Below are positions 2,406 to 13,385 of a DNA stretch of 13,385 bases, piece by piece. The notes beneath the pieces are model-generated. The model saw nothing but the letters and a program-made list of their open reading frames with translations, was not told the DNA's origin and made no database searches. The number at the start of each line of letters is the position of its first letter. Position 1 is the first letter of the stretch. The position numbers were made by a program, and so were the translations under genes. The DNA is from Myxococcota bacterium. GTDB taxonomy: Bacteria; Myxococcota_A; Polyangia; Nannocystales; Nannocystaceae. The stretch is taken from the NCBI GenBank assembly GCA_039028615.1, contig JBCCHT010000085.1, forward strand, positions 1 to 13,385. Direction: 5' to 3'.

Positions 2406-3269
2406 ATGCGAGAGGTCGACATCACTTGGCGTGCGTTGCGGAGTGACCTCAACACCACGCTGCTGCCGATCGGGCTGTTCGTGGCCGCTGCGGCCAGTGT
2501 GAAGCCAGGTATCGAACCCTTCGAGTGGTTCCGGCTCATCGCACTGAGCCAGCTCTACGCCCTGCCCTACATCGCCTGGTTCTGCTTTTCAGGGCAAGCG
2601 GGCAGCGTGGAGGAAGACCGGGTCGAGAAGCCCTTTCGACCACTGCCTCGCGGGCTACTGAGCGTGCGAGGGGCCCTGGTCCGGGCGGGGATCTGGTCCC
2701 TCGTGTACCTCGCGATCAGTGCCGTGTTGGGCGTGTTGCCGTGGGCGGTGCTGTGGTTGGTCGCCGGAGGTTACCACAACCTCGGTGGCGGGCACCGACA
2801 CTGGTTGACGAAGAACACGCTCACCATGAGCCTCGGCACCGCGGCTCAGCTCGGTGCGGGCTGGACCCTGGTGCACGGGAACTTCTCGCCCTCGGGGCTG
2901 ACGTTCACCGTCGGCATGTCGGTTTGGGTCGGAATCATGGCGAACATCCAAGATTTTCGCGATGTCGAGGGCGATGTCAGAAGCGGCCGACGCACGCTGC
3001 CGGTATTGCTGGGGGACCGCGCGCGTTGGGCCATGGCCACCGCGGCGGCCGTGCTGGGGCTCATCACGCCCGCCGTGTTGTCGAGCTTGCACGACGGCAC
3101 CGCGGCCCGGCTGTTCGCGCTGACGCTGGGGGCGTGGCAAGTGTGGATCGGCTGGCGGTTGCTCGCCTTTCGCGACCGTGCCTCCGACGATCGAACCTAC
3201 AAGCTCCACCTCTCGCTGTGGTACTGCGCCGCGCTGGCTGGTGCTGCGCTCTACCTGGAGGCGCCATGA
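2406..3269 (+). CDS. UbiA-superfamily integral membrane protein, probable UbiA-type terpene cyclase (EriG/Fma-TC-like), 287 aa
   Basis: GGGAG at 2391-2395 precedes ATG 2406. Multiple TM helices; motif 1 region GQAGSVEEDRVEKPFRPLPRG (from 2592); WLTKN; motif 2 QDFRDVEGD...GRRTLP (2949-2975). The QDxxDxxxD form and the crtE/P450 neighbours point to the terpene-cyclase subgroup. UbiA membership is secure; cyclase activity is inferred. Confidence 0.82.
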   Translation: MREVDITWRALRSDLNTTLLPIGLFVAAAASVKPGIEPFEWFRLIALSQLYALPYIAWFCFSGQAGSVEEDRVEKPFRPLPRGLLSVRGALVRAGIWSLVYLAISAVLGVLPWAVLWLVAGGYHNLGGGHRHWLTKNTLTMSLGTAAQLGAGWTLVHGNFSPSGLTFTVGMSVWVGIMANIQDFRDVEGDVRSGRRTLPVLLGDRARWAMATAAAVLGLITPAVLSSLHDGTAARLFALTLGAWQVWIGWRLLAFRDRASDDRTYKLHLSLWYCAALAGAALYLEAP

Positions 3270-6200
3270 TGCGCACCGAGACCATCCCCAGACCCCGTGG
3301 ACTTCCGGGCCTCGGCCACCTTCACCTCATTTCCCTGCGCAAGACGGTCCAGTCGCTGGTGAATCTGGCCAGCACTCAGGGCCCGCTGTTCGAGGTCGAC
3401 CTCCTCGGAACACAGATGGTCTTCGCGACGGGCGCGGACATCGTCGAGGAGCTTTGTGACGAGAGTCGCTTCCAGAAGTACCTGGACGAGCGCGTCGAAA
3501 ACCTGCGGGCTCTGGGTGGCGACGGGCTGGCGACGGCATGGACCCATGAGCCCGCCTGGCGGAAGGCCCACAACGTGCTCATGCCGGGGCTGTCGCAACG
3601 GGCCATGCGTGGGTACTTCCCGAAGATGCTCGACACCCTGGACCGCATGTTCGCGAAATGGGAAGGGTTTGGGCCGGGGCACTACTTCAACCTCTCCGAC
3701 GAGATCATGCGCCTCACCTTCGACACGATCGGGGTGTGCGGCTTCGGCTATAGCTTCGGCTCGTTCGAGAAGGAGGAGCTGGCGCCGTTCATTCACGCGC
3801 TCACTTCGTGCCTGAAGATCGCCGTCGCGCGCAGCTTCACCCCCAAGTTCGTGCAGCCGCTCCAGTTCAGGCAAAATCGGCGCTTCGACGAGAGCGTGAA
3901 GGTCATCTTCGAGTTGGTGGACGAGATCGTCGACGATCGCATCGCCTTCCCCGAGAGGTATCGGCAGAACACCGACCTGTTGAGCCTCATGCTCAACGCA
4001 ACGGACAAGGAATCCGGCTCGAAGCTGGAGGTCGCCAACGTTCGCCACCAGATCATGACGTTCTTGTCGGCGGGGAGCGAAACCACCAACTCGCTGTTGG
4101 CCTTCGCCTTCTACTATCTGTTGTCGCAGCCCACGTACATGGACAAGGCGCGTGCCGAGGTCGACGAGGTGATGGGCACCGATCCGAGCGTACGGCCGAC
4201 CTATGCGCAGCTCCAGGAGCTCCACTTCATACGTCAGGTGTTGCAGGAATCCTTGAGGCTCTGGCCCCCGGTGCCGATCTTCCAGCTCTACGCCACTCAG
4301 GACACCAACCTCGGCGGGGGCACCTACTCGATCCCGAAGGGGCAGTCGGTCAACGTACTCGTGCCCGGTCTGCATCGGGATCCCGAGGTCTGGGGGCGCG
4401 ATGCAGACGAATTCAACCCGCTGCGTTTCGAGCGGGAGCTGGCTGAGCAGCGCCACCCCTTCGGTTTCAAGCCCTTCGGCAACGGCGTGCGGGCCTGCAT
4501 CGGTCGTCAGTTCGCCATGATGGAGGCCATGTCTGCGATCGCGGCAGTGCTGCAGCGCTACCGGGTTCGACTGTCGGATCGCTACCGCTTCGAGGTCCTG
4601 GAGACGCTGACGCTGCATCCCCGAGCGCTCGAGGTTGCGATCGAGCCCCGCCCGGTCGCCGAGCGTAGGGGGCCGGCGAAGACGGTCGGCGCGATCCCAA
4701 CCCGCTCGCGGCACGCGTCCGAGGCACCTCGGCACGGGACCCCGATGTACGTCCTGTACGGCTCGAACATGGGCTCCAGCGAGGATCTGGCCAACCTGCT
4801 GGCGACCGAGGGCGCGCGTCAGGGGTTCGAGGCCACGGTGGGGCCGCTGAACGACTTCGTCGATGCCTTGCCCGCTCGCGGTCACGTGCAGATCGTATGC
4901 TCGACCTACAACGGTTTTCCTCCCGACAACGCGACCGAATTCTGTACGTGGCTTCGGAGGGAGAGCCCGGATCTTTCCGGTCTGACCTACAGCGTGTTCG
5001 GCTGTGGCAACACCCAGTGGAAGACCTTCCAGGACGTGCCTCGGTGGCTCGACGAGCGGCTCGAGACACTCGGTGCTCGCCGCGTGTACGAGCGAGGCGA
5101 AGCCGACGCCAGCGTCGACTTCGAGGGCGCGTTTCACCGTTGGTACCAGCCCTACTGGGCGACACTTCGCGATGAGCTCGCGCTCGAGGGCGAGGGCGAG
5201 CTCAGCCCCGAGCCAGTCGAGCCTTCGTTGACGGTGGTTGTTCACGAGGGCAACGTCGACGTACCGCTGCCACCTTCGCTCGAAGACGGGCAGGTTCTCG
5301 AAGTGCTGCGCAACGTCGAGCTGCAATCGAGCCGCTCTCCTCGTTCGACTCGCCACATCGAGCTCGCGCTGGATGAGACCGCCGAGTATCGCGTGGGTGA
5401 CCATCTGAGGGTGCAGCCCCGCAACGCGCCGGAGCTTTGCGCTCGCGTGTGTCGACGTTTTTGCGTGGACCCGCGACGACAGATCCTCCTTCGTGCGACG
5501 CCGGGCTATCGGACGCACCTGCCCCTCGGCGTTCCCACTACGGTCGAGCGCCTATTGACAGAGCGGGTCGAGCTACAGTCCCCGGCGACGCGCAAGCAAC
5601 TCGAGGCGGTCGCAGCGATGACCGCGTGTGTTCCCGAGGCCCGGCGCGTGAGGGGCTGGCTCGAGTCCGATGCCTACGCGCGGGAGATCGTAGCCGAGCA
5701 CCGATCGCTACTCGACATCGTCGAGGCGCTCGAGTCATGCACCATGGACTTCGCCGGGTTCGTCAGCCTACTGCCGGCCCTCGCCCCCCGGTACTACTCG
5801 ATCTCCTCGAGCCCCCGGACCCATGCGAATCAATGCAGCATCACCGTCGGCGTCGTGGCTGGCCCCGCTCGCTCCGGGGAAAGCCACTTCGAGGGGGTGT
5901 GTTCGAGCTATCTGCGGCGCGCCACCCCGGGAACGAAGATTTGCGCTTCGCTTCGGGCCAACGCCGCGCCCTTCACGGTGCCCTCGGACCCCGAGGTCCC
6001 CATCGTCATGGTGGCAGCGGGCACCGGCATCGCCCCCTTTCGCGGTTTCTTGCAGGAGCGCCGGTTCGCGCGAGCGGCAGGTCGATCGCTAGGAGACGCG
6101 CTGCTGTTGTTCGGGTGCCGGCACCCCGAGGAAGACTTCATCTATGGTGAGGAACTTCGCGAGCACGAGGCGTCGGGGGTCGTGGATGTGCGTGTCGCCT

Positions 6201-6463
6201 TCTCTCGACATGAGCCAGGGCGAAAGCACTATGTCCAACACCTGGTCGAGGAGCACTGGACGCGGATTCACGGCATTCTCGCGAAGGGCGGCATTCTCTA
6301 TGTCTGCGGCGATGCAGGGGGTATGGCGGCGGCGGTCTCCGAGACCTGCGAACGGCTCTACCTGCAAAACCACGGTACGACCGAGCACGGGGCCCGGTCG
6401 TGGGTGGCCCGGCTGAGAGCCGAGCAGCGGTACCGCGAAGACATCTGGAGCGACGAAAACTGA
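3266..6463 (+). CDS. Bifunctional cytochrome P450 / NADPH-P450 reductase (CYP102A, P450 BM3-like), about 1065 aa
   Basis: Heme domain: CDESRF.K, GDGL.T.WTHEP.W.KAHN, AGSETT, ESLR, FKPFGNGVRACIG (Cys at 4496). FMN domain: VLYGSNMGSSE, STYNG.PPDNA, VFGCGN. FAD/NADPH domain: RYYSISSSP, GVCSSYL, AGTGIAPFRGF, FGCR, AFSR..K.YVQH, YVCGD, terminal DIW. ATG 3266 overlaps the upstream TGA (ATGA). ATG 3269 is an alternative start; GGAGG at 3257-3261. Confidence 0.96.
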   Translation: MMRTETIPRPRGLPGLGHLHLISLRKTVQSLVNLASTQGPLFEVDLLGTQMVFATGADIVEELCDESRFQKYLDERVENLRALGGDGLATAWTHEPAWRKAHNVLMPGLSQRAMRGYFPKMLDTLDRMFAKWEGFGPGHYFNLSDEIMRLTFDTIGVCGFGYSFGSFEKEELAPFIHALTSCLKIAVARSFTPKFVQPLQFRQNRRFDESVKVIFELVDEIVDDRIAFPERYRQNTDLLSLMLNATDKESGSKLEVANVRHQIMTFLSAGSETTNSLLAFAFYYLLSQPTYMDKARAEVDEVMGTDPSVRPTYAQLQELHFIRQVLQESLRLWPPVPIFQLYATQDTNLGGGTYSIPKGQSVNVLVPGLHRDPEVWGRDADEFNPLRFERELAEQRHPFGFKPFGNGVRACIGRQFAMMEAMSAIAAVLQRYRVRLSDRYRFEVLETLTLHPRALEVAIEPRPVAERRGPAKTVGAIPTRSRHASEAPRHGTPMYVLYGSNMGSSEDLANLLATEGARQGFEATVGPLNDFVDALPARGHVQIVCSTYNGFPPDNATEFCTWLRRESPDLSGLTYSVFGCGNTQWKTFQDVPRWLDERLETLGARRVYERGEADASVDFEGAFHRWYQPYWATLRDELALEGEGELSPEPVEPSLTVVVHEGNVDVPLPPSLEDGQVLEVLRNVELQSSRSPRSTRHIELALDETAEYRVGDHLRVQPRNAPELCARVCRRFCVDPRRQILLRATPGYRTHLPLGVPTTVERLLTERVELQSPATRKQLEAVAAMTACVPEARRVRGWLESDAYAREIVAEHRSLLDIVEALESCTMDFAGFVSLLPALAPRYYSISSSPRTHANQCSITVGVVAGPARSGESHFEGVCSSYLRRATPGTKICASLRANAAPFTVPSDPEVPIVMVAAGTGIAPFRGFLQERRFARAAGRSLGDALLLFGCRHPEEDFIYGEELREHEASGVVDVRVAFSRHEPGRKHYVQHLVEEHWTRIHGILAKGGILYVCGDAGGMAAAVSETCERLYLQNHGTTEHGARSWVARLRAEQRYREDIWSDEN

Positions 6464-6940: not shown

Positions 6941-7687
6941 GTGTCATATCCCGCGGAGACCTTTGACTTCCGCGTGCCCGATGGTGATGCTCGTCACTGC
7001 ACACGTTCGCTCAGCCCTCGCGAAAGCAGGCTCGACGAATGGAAGGCGACTCGAGCCAACATCGAAGTTCGACCCGGGACCCCCACCGCCAAGGAGGCTG
7101 AAGCTTTTGCAGAGCTCGCGCTCGCGGCGGGCGGAGAGATCTTCGCGGAGGTGTTTGGCCCCAACGCCGGTGAGCTGCTGCAGAAGCTCTACCCTCTCGA
7201 GGGCAACTACATGTCCCATCAACTGGCCTTGTTCCTGTGGGTCGACGACGAGATCGTGGGAATGTTCAGCGGCTACTCGTACGACGTGAAGAAGCGAATC
7301 GCTGGGAGCAACATGTGGCAGGCTCTCAAAAAGGGGCCGCTGTTGCTCCCGAGAATGGCCTGGAAAGCCATGACGCTTTCGAAGGTGCTGTCGTTCTCCG
7401 AGCACCTCGAGGAGGGAGAGTTCTGCGTCTCCTTCGTCGCGATCGAGCCAACGATGCGCGGCAAGGGCCTGAGCAAACGACTTCTCGCTCGCGGGACGGA
7501 GTTCGCCCGAGAGCAGGGCGCCAGCACCCTGACGCTATGCGTCGAGGTCGACAACGAAGCCGCCGTCAGTGCGTATCGCAGCTTGGGCATGGAGATCGTG
7601 AGCACTTCAGAGCCTCAAAAGAAGCCGCGAGGCGAGGGCGAGTGGACGATGCACCGCATGAGCATGCCCATCGCCCAGGACGGTTGA
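6941..7687 (+). CDS. GNAT-family N-acetyltransferase (start codon uncertain)
   Basis: Motif A VAIEPTMRGKGLSKRLL and motif B LTLCVEVDNEAAVSAYRSLGM; beta1 IEVRP near 7060. The first ~40 codons from GTG 6941 do not look GNAT-like. Stop TGA at 7685-7687. Confidence 0.85.
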   Translation: MSYPAETFDFRVPDGDARHCTRSLSPRESRLDEWKATRANIEVRPGTPTAKEAEAFAELALAAGGEIFAEVFGPNAGELLQKLYPLEGNYMSHQLALFLWVDDEIVGMFSGYSYDVKKRIAGSNMWQALKKGPLLLPRMAWKAMTLSKVLSFSEHLEEGEFCVSFVAIEPTMRGKGLSKRLLARGTEFAREQGASTLTLCVEVDNEAAVSAYRSLGMEIVSTSEPQKKPRGEGEWTMHRMSMPIAQDG

Positions 7688-8116: not shown

Positions 8117-9015
8117 TGTTCCCCGCGGGCCCAAGAATTGAGTCGGCGCGGACCAGAGCCGACGCGAGTTTTCGTTCCCCGATCCGACCGTCGCTCTACA
8201 GAGGATCGCGGGAGCGCGGGGCGGCAAGAAGAACCGGTAGGTGATGGGAAAACCAAGCCGGCACCGAGCTGCGTCGCTGCGGTGGGCGCGCAACAGGAAC
8301 GGTGCCAGGAGGCAAGCTTTCCCACGTCAACTCGAGTTCAGCCGCTGTCGGGGCAGCTGTGAGCACTGTCCTGACCCAGGGCGAGCGTCAACGCCGTGCG
8401 TTTGCTCGGGACAGCGTGGGTTCCGATGCCCGGCGGTCTGGCGTTTGCGATGGAACTCGAGGAGCGAGGGAGAGCCGGTCGTCGCCGGTTCGTGGGCTGC
8501 GGCTTCGACCGGGTCCGTGCTCGTCGCAAACCCTCGGGGTGATCAGGCTCGAGAGCGGTGCGTCGCCGGGTCGGGTAGTCACGTTGTCCGGGGTAACCGA
8601 TGGTGACGTGGCCGAGCTGCCGAGCACGAACGCGGGCGAGCACGCGAGCGTCGTCGAAGCTCGATCGTACGGCCAACACATTTCTGATCACCCCGTCGAC
8701 CGAGCGTCGCGATACCTCGGATGCTCGGCAAGACCCGAACGTGTCGCGGGACCGACGTGCCGCTCCTGCCCAACGGTGGGCGCCGCAGTAGTCGAAGATC
8801 CTGAGCCCAACGCGACGCGACGCTGGCTCAAGACACGCGGCCATACGGCCGTTCTCGACCACGATTCGGAACGCAGTGCGATGGAGTCGAACCCCGCCGC
8901 CTTTGCTTCGTAAGCTCGCCTTGCGTTCGCTTTCGGCCCCACACCCCCACGCAGATGACCGCTTGCGGTAGATGCGGCATGATCGGCTGGGAGGTGCCTC
9001 CCCAACGCGGACCCT

Positions 9016-12000
9016 ATGGCCGAGTACGACGTCTTTCTCTCCCACAGCTCGACCGACGAACAGGCGGTGGAGGAGATCGCGGGGAGGCTCCGCACCGAGT
9101 TCGAGCTGCGTCCCTACTTCAAGCGGTGGATGCTCGTTCCGGGAGAGCTCTGGCTGCCGGCGATCGAAAAGGCGATCGATACGAGCACGACCATCGCGGT
9201 CTTCCTCGGTCCCGGCCAGATGGGTGTGTGGCAAGAGGACGAAGCTGCTCGTGCGATCGAGCTCGTGGTGCGAGCCGAGCAACGTGGTCGAAGGGTCATC
9301 CCCGTGCTGCTCCCGGGGACGAAGCTCGAGGATGCGCGCGGTTTTCTGGGCCTGCGCACGTGGGTCGATCTCGGTGCGGAAGACGGCATGCAGCGCCTGG
9401 TCGCGGCGATCTCCGGCATCTCGCTGCGTCAACAAGAGCTGATCGCGAAGCCGAGCCGCCAAGGCTACACGCGCGTCGCCGTGGCGCAGCTCGACTACCA
9501 ACCCGCGGCGCTCATCAACCGTCAGTCCCAGCTGACCGAACCTCTGTTCGACCTCGGCAAGCCGAGTGCCCTCGAGCCCGGCACGGGTGACGTACCGCCC
9601 GAGCTGACGGAGCCTCTTCGCGAACTTCGCGAGCGCATTCGCTCGGCTTACGTCGTGCAGCTGTGGGGCAAGCTCCGGGAGATCGTCGCCACGTGCGTCG
9701 ACTGGCGGGTGCAGATCCTCGTGCTCCCCGAGTACTCGGTCCCCCACGAGCTGCTCCAACCGCTGGCCGCCGCGGCGGAGTCGATGGTGATCGTCGCGGG
9801 CACGCACACCGTGGAGCGCTCGGCGCTGAAAGCTGGCGTCTACGAGTCGCTCGAATGGTCCGACCGACCTCGCCGCGGCTCCGCGGTCGTTCCCGTTCTC
9901 CATCGCGGGAAGCTCCTCGCACTACAACCCAAGCTATCGGCGGCCCGTCTCGAGCGAGGCCTCGCAACCGGAGACACCTGGAAGCCCATCGAGTTCGAGT
10001 CCACCGCAGGCCCCCCGCTTCCCGATCCCATGGGGGTGTTGATCTGCCTCGACTTCCTCTACCGCGAGCGCGAGCTGCATCGCTCGTTGATCGGCGAGCA
10101 GCTCGAGCGCACCCGTTTCCTCGCAGTGCCCAGCTTGACGCCCTGGTACACGGTCGACGAGTTTGGTGCCAAGGGCTGGGAGGAGGCTCGGCGCTACGGG
10201 CGGCCTGTCCTGTACGCCAACCACGCCTCGGGCGGCGGGACGACCATCTTCGCCGACGAGGACAAGCGCCGCGATCTGGCTCGGTTCCCCGAGCGCGTGG
10301 GGATGCTCGAGGCGGGCGAAGAGGGGCTCATCGTGGCCGACGTCGACCTTGGGTATCAGCGCACGGGGTCTTCGACTCGCTACGACTCGCCCCGCGTGGT
10401 GATCCCATTCGCCGCCGCATCGCTGGTGTATCGCAACCATCCGGTCTCGGCCGAGTACGCCGACTGGACAACCGAGACCTCGCGCCGCCTTCGGGAGGAC
10501 TCGGTGAGCCTCGACGACGAACTCGATCGCGTCGAGGAGCACGAGTCCAAGCTGCTCGAGGCCGGCTCGCTCTTCGGCAACGAGACCCGGCGGCGACGTG
10601 TCCAACGGCTGCTGCGCGAACTCGAGGGGGTTGGTTCCTCGGAGGAGTTGTCGCGGTTCACGAGGGAGATCGTCCTTCCCGCTCACGTGCTCCCGATGTC
10701 CATCGTTCGCCAGGCGCTCGCGTTGGGAGCCTCGGATGCGATGTTCGACTGGCGAAAGGAGCATCGCTCCGCCGACTACCAGAAAGTCGGCGAGGTGCTT
10801 CGGGCCTCGGCCAAGCAGCTGTTGGATACCGACCCTTCGCAGTGGACGCCGAATGGCACGGCGGTTTGCGATCAGCTTCGCCGTGACGTGCATGCGGCGG
10901 TCGCCCCGGAACCGGCACCAGAGCCCCAGCGGATCGAAACACGGCCTGGGTTTCCGGTCGGGGTCCGAATCCCGAACCACGATGCGCCCGAGAAAGATGG
11001 CCTCACCCTAATGTTTCGGGACGGCCCCAGCGGTTTGCTGCACAAGGACCGCTCGAAAGGGGAGCAGGAGGGAAGCCAAGACCACCACGCGTATCCACCC
11101 CGCACAGATCGAGTTCTTCACGCGAATTGGTCGCCAAGTCAGCTCAAGGTGGCGACAGACCTATGGCTAGCGCGCCGAGCAGCTGGCTTCGCCGATGCGA
11201 CGGTCGTTGGGATCATCGGCGAGGACGGCTCGGCGATCGCCACCCTTCGCTGTGAGGACGGAATGTGGCTCGCTAATGCACCGGATTGGGGCATCGGCGC
11301 GGCCTGGCTTCGCACGAATTTCCGCGCCGTCGAGTCGGCGTTGCGTTCGATGCTAGGTTCGTTCGGTGGGTTCGAATTCGTAGACGAAGAGATCCACCTC
11401 CGGGCACGAGACGAGCACCTTGACCGACTCCGAGCGAGCGCTAGGTACGAGATCGCTCGTGCGGTCGCCCAACGCGTGAACATTGGCTTCGTCCCCCCAA
11501 CGGTCGAGAGCGAGGGCATGCGCTCGACCGGTTTCACGGCACTCGGGCAATGGCTGGCGGGCCCGAAGTCGGCCGCACTCGTGCTCGGACCTTTCGGTAC
11601 GGGCAAGTCGACCCTCTTGGCGAAATGGGCGGAGTCGCAGCTCGGCGACGACGCGGGGCGTGTCCCCGTCCTCGTAGACCTGGCGCGAGCGAACCTCACA
11701 GATCCACTCGGCATGCTGTGCGAGGCGGCGAGGCTGGACCCGACCCAAGAGTCCGAGCGAGCCGTGATGTCGTGGCTCGTTGGGCGCGGTCACGTGATCG
11801 CGTGTTTCGACGGCTTCGACGAGATGGCCACTCGCCGCGCGTTCGCTGACTTACCCCGCGAACTCGAGTCTCTCCTTCGCGTTGGGGGCCAGCGAGGAAA
11901 GGTGGTGGTCTCGTCCCGCGATCACTATTTCTCCGACGAGCGGCAGGTGGAACAGGTCACAGAGTCTGCGAGCCAACGCGCGGGCGTCTCCGGCCTCGTC

Positions 12001-13385
12001 CGCATGGATCTGCAGCCTTTCACCGAACGCGAGATCAAGTTGCTCGTCGGGCAGACGTTCCAAGACGTCGACAGGCGGGCTGAGGTCCTCGCGAAGATCC
12101 GCGACACCTACGACCTGCTCGACTTGGTCCAGACGCCACTGCTGCTGCACATGGTGCTCGAGACGATCGACGAGATCGACCCGAGCGCTCGCGTGGGGCA
12201 GGCGAGAATCTACGAAGAGTACCTGCAGCGATGGCTCACCAACGCCGAGCATGGCGCGAAGGAACTCTTTTCACGCGAGAACAAGATCGCATTTGCCGAG
12301 GTTCTCGCCGCCACCCTGTGGCGAAGCGGCGAGTCTTCGGTGGCGTGGAAAGACCTCCATCGCTCCGTGATGGCGCGGCTGGTGGCCGAGTTCCCCGAGA
12401 TCACTGCAGGGGTGCCCGCCGAGGCGGCATACCTGGAGATCCAGGGGGGGTCGTTCTTCGTGTGGGAAGGCGGAGACCGCTTTCGCTTCGCCCACAAGTC
12501 GTTCCTCGAGTACTTCGTGGCGCGAGGGCTGCTTTCGGGTCTCGAGGCCGATCCGGGTCGAGTCCTCGATACCAAGCCCATCAGCATCGAAGTCTCTTCG
12601 TTCGTGGCGCAGATGGTGCAGGACACTGGGCGTGACCACCCTGCGATCTCCAGTTTGCGGCAGTGGTTGGTCGGTGGTCGCGGGCGGGCCGGCATGGCCG
12701 AAACGTCGACCGCCGCGGCCAATGCTGTTCGGCTGCTTCGCGATGTGCCCCGAGCGCTGGGGGAGGCGGCTGGGTGGATTCCAGACCGAGCCGATCTTCA
12801 AGGCATCAGCCTGGCCGGAGAGTCGTTCGAGGGGATGGTGCTTCGGCATGTGAAGCTGGACCAAGCGAACTTGGCCGCGGTCGACTTCACGCGGGTCAAC
12901 CTCGAAGGCGCCTCGCTACGTGCTGCCGTGTTGACCGGTGCGACGTTCTGGCAATCGGTTTTGGAGGGAGCCGACCTCGACGGAGCGCGGCTCGACGGTG
13001 CCCAAGGGCATCAATGCCAACTGCGGGGGGCAGCGCTGCAGGGCGCGAGTTTTCGGCAGTCGGTATGGACGGCATGCGACTGGCCCCTCGCGATTTCGGT
13101 GCCGCAGGAGTTGGTTCAGCTCGCTGATGGAACGATAGTGCAAATCGAGGAAGGCCTGCGGCCTTCGTTCTCATCTGCGCGCTACACATTTCGCGCTGGT
13201 CACTCGGACTGGGTCTGGTCGGTGGCGTGGGCGCCCGACGGCCAGCGTCTCGCCTCCGCTTCCGACGATGGCTCTATCCGGGTGTGGAGTGCAGACGACG
13301 GGGCCCTCCTCGCGACCCTCGAAGGTCACTCGGGCTCCGTCCTGTCGGTGGCGTGGGCGCCCGACGGCCAGCGTCTCGCCTCCGC
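9016..13385 (+). CDS. NLR-like STAND protein: TIR - nitrilase/CN-hydrolase - unknown region - NACHT - pentapeptide repeats - WD40 repeats (3'-truncated by the window edge)
   Basis: Hand translation of frame 1 from ATG 9016 (first start after in-frame TGA 8980-8982) gives no stop up to 13385, which is why it is absent from the track. TIR about 9016-9417 (YDVFLSHSSTD, WQEDE, VIPVLLPG, TWVDL). Nitrilase 9472-10350 (RVAVAQ, LVLPEYS, QPKL, GVLICLDF, LAVPS, YAN, EEGLIVADVDL). NACHT Walker A GPFGTGKST (11587-11613), Walker B IACFDGFDEM (to 11826), VVVSSR, TPLLL, FAHKSFLEYFVA (from 12487). Pentapeptides from 12790; WD40 from 13198. Confidence 0.93.
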   Translation, partial: MAEYDVFLSHSSTDEQAVEEIAGRLRTEFELRPYFKRWMLVPGELWLPAIEKAIDTSTTIAVFLGPGQMGVWQEDEAARAIELVVRAEQRGRRVIPVLLPGTKLEDARGFLGLRTWVDLGAEDGMQRLVAAISGISLRQQELIAKPSRQGYTRVAVAQLDYQPAALINRQSQLTEPLFDLGKPSALEPGTGDVPPELTEPLRELRERIRSAYVVQLWGKLREIVATCVDWRVQILVLPEYSVPHELLQPLAAAAESMVIVAGTHTVERSALKAGVYESLEWSDRPRRGSAVVPVLHRGKLLALQPKLSAARLERGLATGDTWKPIEFESTAGPPLPDPMGVLICLDFLYRERELHRSLIGEQLERTRFLAVPSLTPWYTVDEFGAKGWEEARRYGRPVLYANHASGGGTTIFADEDKRRDLARFPERVGMLEAGEEGLIVADVDLGYQRTGSSTRYDSPRVVIPFAAASLVYRNHPVSAEYADWTTETSRRLREDSVSLDDELDRVEEHESKLLEAGSLFGNETRRRRVQRLLRELEGVGSSEELSRFTREIVLPAHVLPMSIVRQALALGASDAMFDWRKEHRSADYQKVGEVLRASAKQLLDTDPSQWTPNGTAVCDQLRRDVHAAVAPEPAPEPQRIETRPGFPVGVRIPNHDAPEKDGLTLMFRDGPSGLLHKDRSKGEQEGSQDHHAYPPRTDRVLHANWSPSQLKVATDLWLARRAAGFADATVVGIIGEDGSAIATLRCEDGMWLANAPDWGIGAAWLRTNFRAVESALRSMLGSFGGFEFVDEEIHLRARDEHLDRLRASARYEIARAVAQRVNIGFVPPTVESEGMRSTGFTALGQWLAGPKSAALVLGPFGTGKSTLLAKWAESQLGDDAGRVPVLVDLARANLTDPLGMLCEAARLDPTQESERAVMSWLVGRGHVIACFDGFDEMATRRAFADLPRELESLLRVGGQRGKVVVSSRDHYFSDERQVEQVTESASQRAGVSGLVRMDLQPFTEREIKLLVGQTFQDVDRRAEVLAKIRDTYDLLDLVQTPLLLHMVLETIDEIDPSARVGQARIYEEYLQRWLTNAEHGAKELFSRENKIAFAEVLAATLWRSGESSVAWKDLHRSVMARLVAEFPEITAGVPAEAAYLEIQGGSFFVWEGGDRFRFAHKSFLEYFVARGLLSGLEADPGRVLDTKPISIEVSSFVAQMVQDTGRDHPAISSLRQWLVGGRGRAGMAETSTAAANAVRLLRDVPRALGEAAGWIPDRADLQGISLAGESFEGMVLRHVKLDQANLAAVDFTRVNLEGASLRAAVLTGATFWQSVLEGADLDGARLDGAQGHQCQLRGAALQGASFRQSVWTACDWPLAISVPQELVQLADGTIVQIEEGLRPSFSSARYTFRAGHSDWVWSVAWAPDGQRLASASDDGSIRVWSADDGALLATLEGHSGSVLSVAWAPDGQRLAS
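12790..13074 (+). repeat. Pentapeptide repeat region (about 19 A[D/N/S]Lxx units) within the NLR-like CDS
   Basis: ADLQG ISLAG ESFEG MVLRH VKLDQ ANLAA VDFTR VNLEG ASLRA AVLTG ATFWQ SVLEG ADLDG ARLDG AQGHQ CQLRG AALQG ASFRQ SVWTA. Confidence 0.9.
13198..13385 (+). repeat. 126-bp tandem DNA repeat encoding 42-aa WD40 units (about 1.5 copies visible)
   Basis: GHSDWVWSVAWAPDGQRLASASDDGSIRVWSADDGALLATLE followed by GHSGSVLSVAWAPDGQRLAS. Nucleotides 13218-13259 and 13344-13385 are identical (42 bp, offset 126). Confidence 0.92.

Follow-up and report, generated by a model that had tools for sequence, protein, structure and literature searches.

Can a bacterial NLR-type receptor carry two enzymes in tandem at its N-terminus, and if so, do the two act as one? 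This question is raised by a gene at the end of a contig from a marine myxobacterium (contig C85 of genome G000; assembly of 12.27 Mb in 94 contigs, 96.66% complete). The contig was analyzed in full and is referred to below as the window (G000:C85:1-13385, 13,385 bases). An earlier note on this DNA had described a receptor in which a TIR domain and a nitrilase-superfamily domain precede a NACHT NTPase and a repeat sensor. We consider it rather probable, though far from assured, that the product of the gene is a conflict receptor of the NLR type (STAND/NACHT), with a nitrilase that oligomerization activates and a TIR domain added as a second effector. The architecture, the intact TIR, nitrilase, and NACHT active-site motifs, and the placement of the nitrilase in the effector position were observed directly.

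Two enzyme domains ahead of a NACHT module

The receptor is encoded by a single uninterrupted open reading frame (ORF) of at least 1456 codons, as the earlier note had claimed. Every element that the note had named was found where it had placed it, which supports a STAND/NLR-type receptor with N-terminal enzymes. The window spans the whole contig, so the frame is interrupted where the assembly ends and has no terminating stop codon. Relatives measure about 2,300 amino acids, and roughly 850 C-terminal residues, carrying further WD40 repeats, would thus be missing from the window protein. The frame contains the following features.

9016..13383, + strand: open frame with an ATG start, 1456 codons, and no stop up to the last base
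9031..9402, + strand: TIR domain, residues 6-129
9403..9459, + strand: short linker that joins the TIR and nitrilase domains in frame at the domain boundary
9460..10479, + strand: nitrilase-superfamily (CN-hydrolase) domain, residues ~149-488, assigned by fold and catalytic tetrad
10576..11565, + strand: middle segment, residues 521-850, with a helical bundle, a disordered linker of ~70 residues, and a small alpha/beta unit
11578..12063, + strand: NACHT NTPase core, residues 855-1016
12787..13065, + strand: pentapeptide-repeat region, residues 1258-1350
13156..13383, + strand: WD40, first repeats of the C-terminal sensor, residues from ~1381, ended by the contig

The TIR domain was recognized by Pfam TIR_2 (E 7.9e-18; 65.6 bits against a cut-off of 28). 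The glutamate that had been read as that of the WxxxE motif, at position 9241, is E76 (nucleotides 9241-9243); it sits in W72-x3-E76, and both W72 and E76 are invariant in all 15 aligned TIR homologs. We take E76 to occupy the catalytic glutamate position of TIR NADases, and the domain is a putatively competent NADase.

The triad E(9730)-K(9931)-C(10045) proposed for the second domain is likewise present, as E239, K306, and C344, and a fourth conserved residue, E313 (nucleotide 9952), extends it to a tetrad. In an alignment with 29 short homologs (A1), K306, E313, C344, and D346 were invariant and E239 was nearly so. We also assembled 227 other carriers of the domain, a set that includes P0003, which is identical to the window protein. 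Among these, E239 was kept in 215, K306 in 216, E313 in 211, and C344 in 210.

The earlier note had made its nitrilase assignment depend on a profile or structure match, and of these only the structure match was obtained, the domain scoring E 0.095 with Pfam PF00795. That profile was matched by 15 of 30 family members on their own sequences at E ≤ 0.01 (best, 1.3e-06). A single-sequence search of the nitrilase segment against solved structures returned four matches, at E ≥ 0.76 and with no nitrilase among them, and a profile search returned six marginal matches (E 0.028-0.044), each to a nitrilase-superfamily enzyme. The profile-to-PDB alignments placed the PE motif in register with D-carbamoylase and the K...E and Cys motifs with NitA, at positions that are presumably the catalytic residues of these solved enzymes. 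An AlphaFold2 model built on alignment A1 reached a predicted local distance difference test score (pLDDT) of 89.5 and a predicted template modeling score of 0.91. The top Foldseek matches listed for this model were all nitrilase-superfamily proteins at E of about 1e-10, including Nit2, the Nesterenkonia amidase, the glutaminase domain of nicotinamide adenine dinucleotide (NAD+) synthetase, vanin-1, and aliphatic amidase. With VIA-align, ranks 1 to 24 were nitrilase-superfamily chains (Z 17.0-22.9 over 202-238 aligned residues), and the next fold appeared at rank 25 with Z 8.4. By both structural comparisons the model has the four-layer alpha-beta-beta-alpha sandwich of the superfamily. Judged from the model and the active site, the domain is a divergent nitrilase-superfamily branch, and it is very probably catalytic.

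The conservation of the tetrad bears on an alternative in which the nitrilase is a non-catalytic platform that only tetramerizes or stacks, clustering the TIR domain as the sole effector of the window protein. Such a role would find a precedent in the DRT1 defense system, where, in the account of the tetramer given in the structure paper, contacts are made exclusively by the nitrilase domain (PMC13275509), and a scaffold would also fit the 12 of 227 relatives in which the catalytic cysteine is replaced. However, the tetrad residues are kept in 210 to 216 of the 227 relatives, and, the window's own protein aside, none of the 227 other carriers has a TIR domain to cluster. We regard this alternative as very unlikely. 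A homodimer prediction of the nitrilase domain, run without controls, scored 0.00 and speaks in neither direction on self-association.

The NACHT module and repeat sensor described in the earlier note were also recovered, giving the tripartite effector-NACHT-repeat-sensor architecture of NLRs. Walker A (GPFGTGKS, from residue 858, nucleotides 11587-11610) and Walker B (DGFDE, from residue 932, nucleotide 11809) are intact. The NACHT score of the window protein falls slightly under the Pfam cut-off, whereas those of relatives, at 48.4 and 47.1 bits, lie above it. The NCBIfam model for the antiphage NACHT protein EruA gave a partial match (E 1.7e-11); no literature on EruA as a NACHT protein was found, the name being met only for an unrelated E. 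coli regulator. The pentapeptide region (Pfam Pentapeptide, E 7.6e-18, and NCBIfam pentapeptide families) and the WD40 repeats (Pfam WD40, E 6.8e-18) both pass their Pfam cut-offs. The first part of the middle segment is conserved in relatives. Residues 521-850 matched no Pfam family, the segment was modeled with a pLDDT of 69.8, and its best structural match (Z 7.0) was within background. An atlas comparison of the same residues gave weak leads, among them NACHT N-terminal helical families, with every score below 0.9.

A nitrilase-first family and the probable origin of the TIR domain

A search with the nitrilase segment found 132 proteins of 800-2548 amino acids at E ≤ 0.001. Among the best 120, which were listed, most are Myxococcota proteins of ~2,300 amino acids with NACHT, pentapeptide, and WD40 regions and an N-terminal nitrilase, and the genera represented in the family include Sorangium, Enhygromyxa, Archangium, Polyangium, Cystobacter, and Hyalangium. 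With the window's own protein, the assembled carriers of the domain number 228 and are mostly myxobacterial. The start of the domain is included in 191 proteins, and 182 of these have it no more than 40 residues from their N-terminus. The three longest N-terminal extensions, of 114-131 residues (P0112, P0114, and P0115), are not TIR domains, and the closest relatives, P0123 (65%) and P0124 (63%), open directly with M-x-YTRVAVAQLDY. The nitrilase leads the protein in 182 of 191 relatives and therefore appears to be the ancestral effector-position domain of the family, and the TIR domain a late addition.

The nitrilase-NACHT combination, which the earlier note had thought undescribed, is therefore far from singular, given these 228 carriers. 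Its broad architecture had moreover been catalogued already, since CN-hydrolase ("carbon-nitrogen hydrolase") is listed among the NACHT-fused domains in the legend of an architecture figure of Kibby et al. (2022; 10.1101/2022.07.19.500537). Nor are nitrilase-first STAND proteins limited to NACHT or to myxobacteria, because versions with nSTAND6 and NB-ARC occur in other phyla. In these distant relatives (25-33% identity), the nitrilase heads proteins of ~1,000-1,140 amino acids, encoded at the following positions.

L070:9989-13021
L078:10001-13126
L075:9998-13423

The distant versions carry nSTAND6 and TPR (Bacillota), NB-ARC and TPR (Dehalococcoidales), or TPR and DUF3892 (Acidobacteriota). 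In a phylum-wide sample the domain was found in 3 of 401 genomes, G000 included, which is too sparse to describe its distribution. In a Pirellula metagenome-assembled genome, consecutive ORFs encode a nitrilase of 485 amino acids (L043:6651-8108), a NACHT protein of 522 (8151-9719), and a WD40 protein of 788 (9583-11949); this arrangement would be either a natural split version or the product of frameshift errors.

The tandem of TIR and nitrilase, which had also been put forward as undescribed, fared better: no second example was found. When residues 1-520 were compared with 1.84 billion cluster representatives, the window's own protein was the only one among the best 150 in which both halves were matched; 147 matches reached E ≤ 1e-30, and a very divergent fusion scoring below the best 150 could escape this search. 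In 60 other genomes of the same family, matches covered residues ~3-135 or ~141-519 and never both. All five same-genus genomes gave TIR-only matches, which head long frames, and none of the five had the nitrilase domain; in 11 genomes of five other genera, the nitrilase was found without a TIR domain. A tblastn search with the window TIR found no match in 71 loci of relatives, including up to 10 kb of flanking sequence on each side. A Pfam scan of 14 sampled loci found a different, more distant TIR domain at one of them (L066), in a neighboring gene. Apart from the copy identical to the window protein, none of the 227 other carriers bears a TIR domain. Within the searches made, the N-terminal tandem thus appears to be the sole natural example.

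A relative of the TIR domain lies in the same genome, where contig C26 encodes a TIR-DUF4062-NACHT-FGE-sulfatase paralog (L004:1196-4756, minus strand) whose TIR domain is 56% identical to that of the window protein. The TIR domain would be a portable leading module, from a family that commonly heads STAND proteins. Relatives begin with M-x(3-8)-YTRVAVxQLDY, and the linker of the window gene has no ATG, GTG, or TTG at the corresponding position, which leaves the nitrilase-NACHT part without a separate start codon. Because every close relative lacks a TIR domain, the simplest history would be that a nitrilase-first NACHT gene of this lineage acquired a TIR module already resident in the genome. 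The protein would then not be a co-evolved TIR-nitrilase pair, the TIR domain being a late, lineage-specific addition.

A fusion seen once might instead be an artifact or a gene in decay, that is, a chimeric junction between TIR and nitrilase or a recent, accidental join in a non-functional gene. It has been seen only once, in a metagenome-assembled genome, its gene extends past the end of a 13.4-kb contig, and none of the five same-genus genomes was found to have the nitrilase domain. We therefore checked the junction by a separate assembly of the single public run that holds this stretch. Positions 8600-11000 were recovered in one 5,299-base contig, which spans the TIR-nitrilase junction at an even depth of 21 with zero differences from the window. 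Two further runs of the same study yielded no contigs that aligned to this stretch. This second assembly is not independent data, because the run may be the source sample, but it still argues against an assembler artifact. Neither a chimera nor a stop between the domains, either of which the earlier note had named as fatal to its proposal, was found in this possibly identical sample. The frame stays open for 1456 codons with all catalytic and NTPase motifs intact, and the TIR and nitrilase parts meet at a domain boundary through a short linker that preserves the reading frame. We give an artifact or decaying gene very little credence.

Although no other carrier has the TIR domain, second effectors recur in the family. 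The following variant architectures were found among the carriers.

P0052 and P0055: nitrilase and EAD2, no NACHT detected (EAD, effector-associated domain)
P0053: nitrilase, NACHT, TPR, PNP_UDP_1, and EAD1
P0094: nitrilase and PNP_UDP_1
P0050: nitrilase, NACHT, and FGE-sulfatase
P0074: nitrilase, NACHT, and HEAT
P0040, P0054, P0078, P0081, and P0085: N-terminal nitrilase and SIR2 at the extreme C-terminus

The nitrilase thus seems to behave as a swappable effector module, and the SIR2 relatives would represent a second, independent pairing of it with an NAD+-targeting enzyme. C-terminal effectors probably share the spatial position of N-terminal ones, as Kibby et al. (2022; 10.1101/2022.07.19.500537) put it in their treatment of such architectures.

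These pairings raise the possibility of coupled chemistry, in which the nitrilase would deamidate nicotinamide, nicotinamide mononucleotide (NMN), or NAD+, so that NAD+ cleaved by TIR or SIR2 could not be rebuilt by the salvage and reconstitution routes of host or phage and its depletion would be irreversible. Some indirect support comes from the five relatives that combine the nitrilase with SIR2 and the two that combine it with PNP_UDP_1; counting the TIR domain of the window protein, three different enzymes that act on NAD+ or nucleosides are found as its partners. Phages rebuild NAD+ from nicotinamide by the NARP1 and NARP2 pathways, as far as the sources consulted describe them, NAD+ is among the candidate substrates of defense nitrilases that the authors of the DRT1 paper name (PMC13275509), and the presence of entry 5ny7 among the Foldseek matches suggests that nitrilase-superfamily amidases can bind nicotinamide. 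On the other side, a second enzyme of this kind occurs in only 8 of the 228 carriers, and because most family members lack such a partner, the nitrilase must be able to act alone. Destruction of nicotinamide alone is not obviously harmful to a cell, and the structural neighbors found with VIA-align show no leaning to any substrate class. Kibby et al. count TIR, SIR2, and PNP among the most frequent NLR effectors, so that the pairing may be generic effector stacking. We consider coupled chemistry possible but unlikely. A little more doubtful still is the more specific proposal that the family nitrilase is a deamidase of the NAD+ pathway, with nicotinamide, NMN, or NAD+ as its substrate, and that it has been paired at least twice with NAD+-cleaving enzymes (TIR at the front, SIR2 at the back).

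Genes beside the receptor and its relatives

In 17 of the 51 relatives' loci with at least 2 kb of downstream sequence, the next gene lies on the same strand, abuts or overlaps the nitrilase gene, and encodes a Metallophos protein of ~650-770 amino acids. The C-terminal half of this protein is Metallophos (calcineurin-like phosphoesterase), and its N-terminal ~300 residues have no assigned domain. The gene was present in 16 of 34 closer loci (L019-L066) and in 1 of 17 more distant ones, and all 17 loci belong to nitrilase-NACHT-pentapeptide-WD40 proteins like that of the window. Nine of them are Sorangium strains, the rest being Nannocystaceae, Archangium, Hyalangium, Polyangiaceae, Myxococcales, and Polyangia records. 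The partner genes lie at the following positions and at 12 further loci.

L023:9176-11137
L024:16735-19047
L026:16819-18828
L030:16571-18526
L067:14862-16919

The Metallophos protein probably belongs to the system in relatives, which would make it part of a candidate two-gene system. At one more locus, L032, a Metallophos gene stands immediately ahead of the gene for a nitrilase-EAD2 protein. This locus, from a Haliangium metagenome-assembled genome, holds an apparent four-gene operon (L032:5699-12550) that encodes a 361-amino-acid protein, a 600-amino-acid HerA/mad8-like ATPase, the 439-amino-acid Metallophos protein, and the nitrilase-EAD2 protein; downstream of the operon lie a transposase fragment and an AAA/NACHT-like TPR STAND gene.

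With such a partner, the nitrilase might be an enzyme of signal processing, making or destroying a small-molecule signal, with the Metallophos protein as the real effector (a nuclease or phosphodiesterase) or as a regulator that degrades the signal. The partner stands directly downstream on the same strand at 17 of 51 loci and directly upstream in the nitrilase-EAD2 case, and signaling enzymes are the main recruits of EAD2 in the account of Kaur et al. (2020; PMC7159879). A parallel pairing of the two enzyme types also occurs in defense. Against this, the partner is absent beside 34 of the 51 loci (33 without L032, where it is upstream) and was not found in the window's genome assembly. Because nine of the 17 positive loci are Sorangium strains, the 17 are not all independent. 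The partner also has no match in PADLOC or, by sequence, among solved structures, where nothing relevant was returned. We hold a signal-processing role to be improbable.

Conflict-type neighbors were found at 3 of 14 sampled loci: a TIR-kinase-FGE-sulfatase gene, a DpdE/ZorD-like SNF2 helicase, and a HerA/mad8-like ATPase. The first of these is at L066:5667-8282 in Sorangium cellulosum So ce56, a TIR_2-protein kinase-FGE-sulfatase gene 1.2 kb upstream of the nitrilase-first giant gene and on the same strand. PADLOC likens this gene to the PD-T4-6 kinase and to the ThsB TIR protein.

The window itself carries metabolic genes upstream of the receptor. A polyprenyl synthetase (766-1968) lies upstream of a self-sufficient P450 fused to a flavodoxin/FAD/NAD reductase (3251-6463, + strand), which resembles P450-BM3 in architecture, and a GNAT acetyltransferase (6941-7687) lies downstream of this fusion. 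The three may form a small terpenoid-tailoring cluster.

Proposed mechanism and relation to known systems

In the conflict-receptor reading that we favor, the C-terminal pentapeptide and WD40 repeats would bind a trigger, a phage or other non-self molecule, by analogy with characterized bacterial and eukaryotic NLRs. Its source might be a phage, a different mobile element, or non-self kin. Trigger binding would cause the NACHT NTPase to oligomerize, and by the same analogy the N-terminal enzymes of several protomers would be brought together. Through this induced proximity the nitrilase domains would form an active oligomer. Oligomerization would switch the nitrilase on because nitrilase-superfamily enzymes need homo-oligomeric assembly, and the DRT1 paper, where it treats assembly, reports that this is required for nitrilase activity (PMC13275509). 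The active nitrilase would then hydrolyze an amide or nitrile group of an essential cellular molecule, leading to growth stop or cell death. Clustered by the same oligomerization, the TIR domain would cleave NAD+, and the two effectors would most likely act in parallel. In DRT1, the nitrilase is described as an abortive-infection effector whose substrate is stated to be unknown, with ATP, GTP, and NAD+ suggested (PMC13275509).

A number of observations weigh against the conflict-receptor reading. Some concern the window protein itself. Its gene is cut at the contig end, and an intact C-terminus is presumed. Its NACHT domain scores 23.8 bits against a Pfam cut-off of 26.7, and its nitrilase domain 12.5 bits (E 0.095) against a PF00795 gathering score of 23.2. 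PADLOC assigns it to no system, with faint partial matches only, including nitrilase-fusion models. The TIR fusion was seen once, in one metagenome-assembled genome, and might be of recent origin and confer little or no selective advantage. Others concern genomic context. The immediate neighbors of the window gene are metabolic (the polyprenyl synthetase, P450-reductase fusion, and GNAT acetyltransferase genes) and do not form a defense island, and defense-type neighbors occur at only 3 of the 14 sampled loci of relatives. The Metallophos partner is not recognized by PADLOC (marginal matches, E about 6e-4) and was not found in the window's genome assembly with the L023 partner as query, the only match being unrelated (E 4e-4); this assembly consists of 94 contigs, and the receptor gene runs off a contig end. 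Still others concern the family. The catalytic cysteine is replaced by Gly, Tyr, Ala, or His in 12 of 227 relatives (~5%), which may be inactive or decoy versions. EAD2 mainly recruits signaling enzymes and not terminal effectors, according to the discussion of this domain by Kaur et al. (PMC7159879), and for this reason a signal-processing role fits the nitrilase at least as well as killing. Finally, the function of every family member is a predicted one.

TIR-STAND and TIR-NLR receptors (bacterial TIR-NACHT proteins, Avs, and plant TNLs) combine an N-terminal TIR domain with a conserved glutamate, a STAND NTPase, and a repeat sensor. The window protein shares the TIR domain with its glutamate ahead of a STAND NTPase and repeats, but differs in having a 340-residue enzyme domain and a 330-residue segment between TIR and NTPase. 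The C26 paralog comes close in having its 56%-identical TIR domain ahead of a second N-terminal domain and NACHT, although that second domain is DUF4062 and not a nitrilase, and the sensor is FGE-sulfatase and not pentapeptide plus WD40. With the bNACHT proteins of Kibby et al. the window protein shares an N-terminal effector, a central NACHT domain, and C-terminal repeats, and pentapeptide or beta-propeller sensors and a TIR effector are named in that work. However, the available passages of Kibby et al. discuss no CN-hydrolase NACHT protein and report none as tested; the enzymatic effectors they name include RNases, DNases, and NAD+-targeting and nucleotide-signal enzymes, with no TIR-nitrilase tandem among them.

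In DRT1 and UG5, as presumably in the window protein, a tetrad-bearing nitrilase-superfamily domain is the effector of a defense protein, with activity tied to the oligomer in DRT1, as far as the relevant sections of these papers go (PMC13275509; PMC13436386). The DRT1 nitrilase, however, is described as C-terminal and as controlled by DNA adducts and filament formation, whereas that of the window is N-terminal to a NACHT switch. Membership of the window protein in DRT1/UG5 was considered and rejected, for it has no reverse transcriptase (RT). No RT family occurs among the best 25 of the 38 Pfam families matched, and the PADLOC RT_UG5-nitrilase model matched only residues 219-265 (~47 residues; E 0.031). 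The resemblance is limited to the nitrilase effector.

Relatives fused to EAD1 or EAD2 link the family to the EAD-coupled systems of multicellular bacteria, although the window protein has no EAD. Kaur et al. (2020; PMC7159879) propose, in their description of these domains, that EADs are coupling adaptors that connect effector or signaling enzymes to core components, and fusion to EAD1 or EAD2 would for this reason be an architectural signature of such enzymes in their systems. The main text of that paper makes no mention of nitrilase, amidase, or carbon-nitrogen, and the same applies to the main text of a 2026 Nature survey of STAND proteins (PMC13581612). Literature searches for nitrilase with NACHT, CN_hydrolase with STAND, and effector-associated domain with nitrilase found no such protein described, though it may be listed in the supplementary tables that accompany Kibby et al. 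and the Nature survey. As far as our searches reach, the TIR-nitrilase tandem, the recurrent SIR2 and PNP pairings, and the Metallophos partner are new.

Nitrilase domains have only just been shown to be effectors in bacterial immunity. The 2026 DRT1 structure paper, in its own assessment, presents defense nitrilases as having little precedent and an unknown substrate (PMC13275509). The effector position of NLR-like STAND proteins would be a second, independent, and much larger setting for them, and the repeated pairing with TIR, SIR2, and PNP, the fusion to EADs, and the conserved Metallophos partner gene are clues to their chemistry. Kibby et al. describe activating mutations that switch on NLR-type proteins, and the family therefore offers a practical route to turning on a defense nitrilase and finding its substrate. 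The window protein would be the most direct test case for cooperation between TIR and nitrilase chemistries, because no other natural protein was found to carry both enzymes in tandem at the N-terminus. If the nitrilase were an NAD+-pathway deamidase, the receptor would cleave NAD+ and at the same time remove the nicotinamide on which host salvage and the phage NARP pathways depend. This would amount to a built-in answer to the reconstitution of NAD+ by phages, and it would suggest a substrate for the DRT1/UG5 nitrilases.

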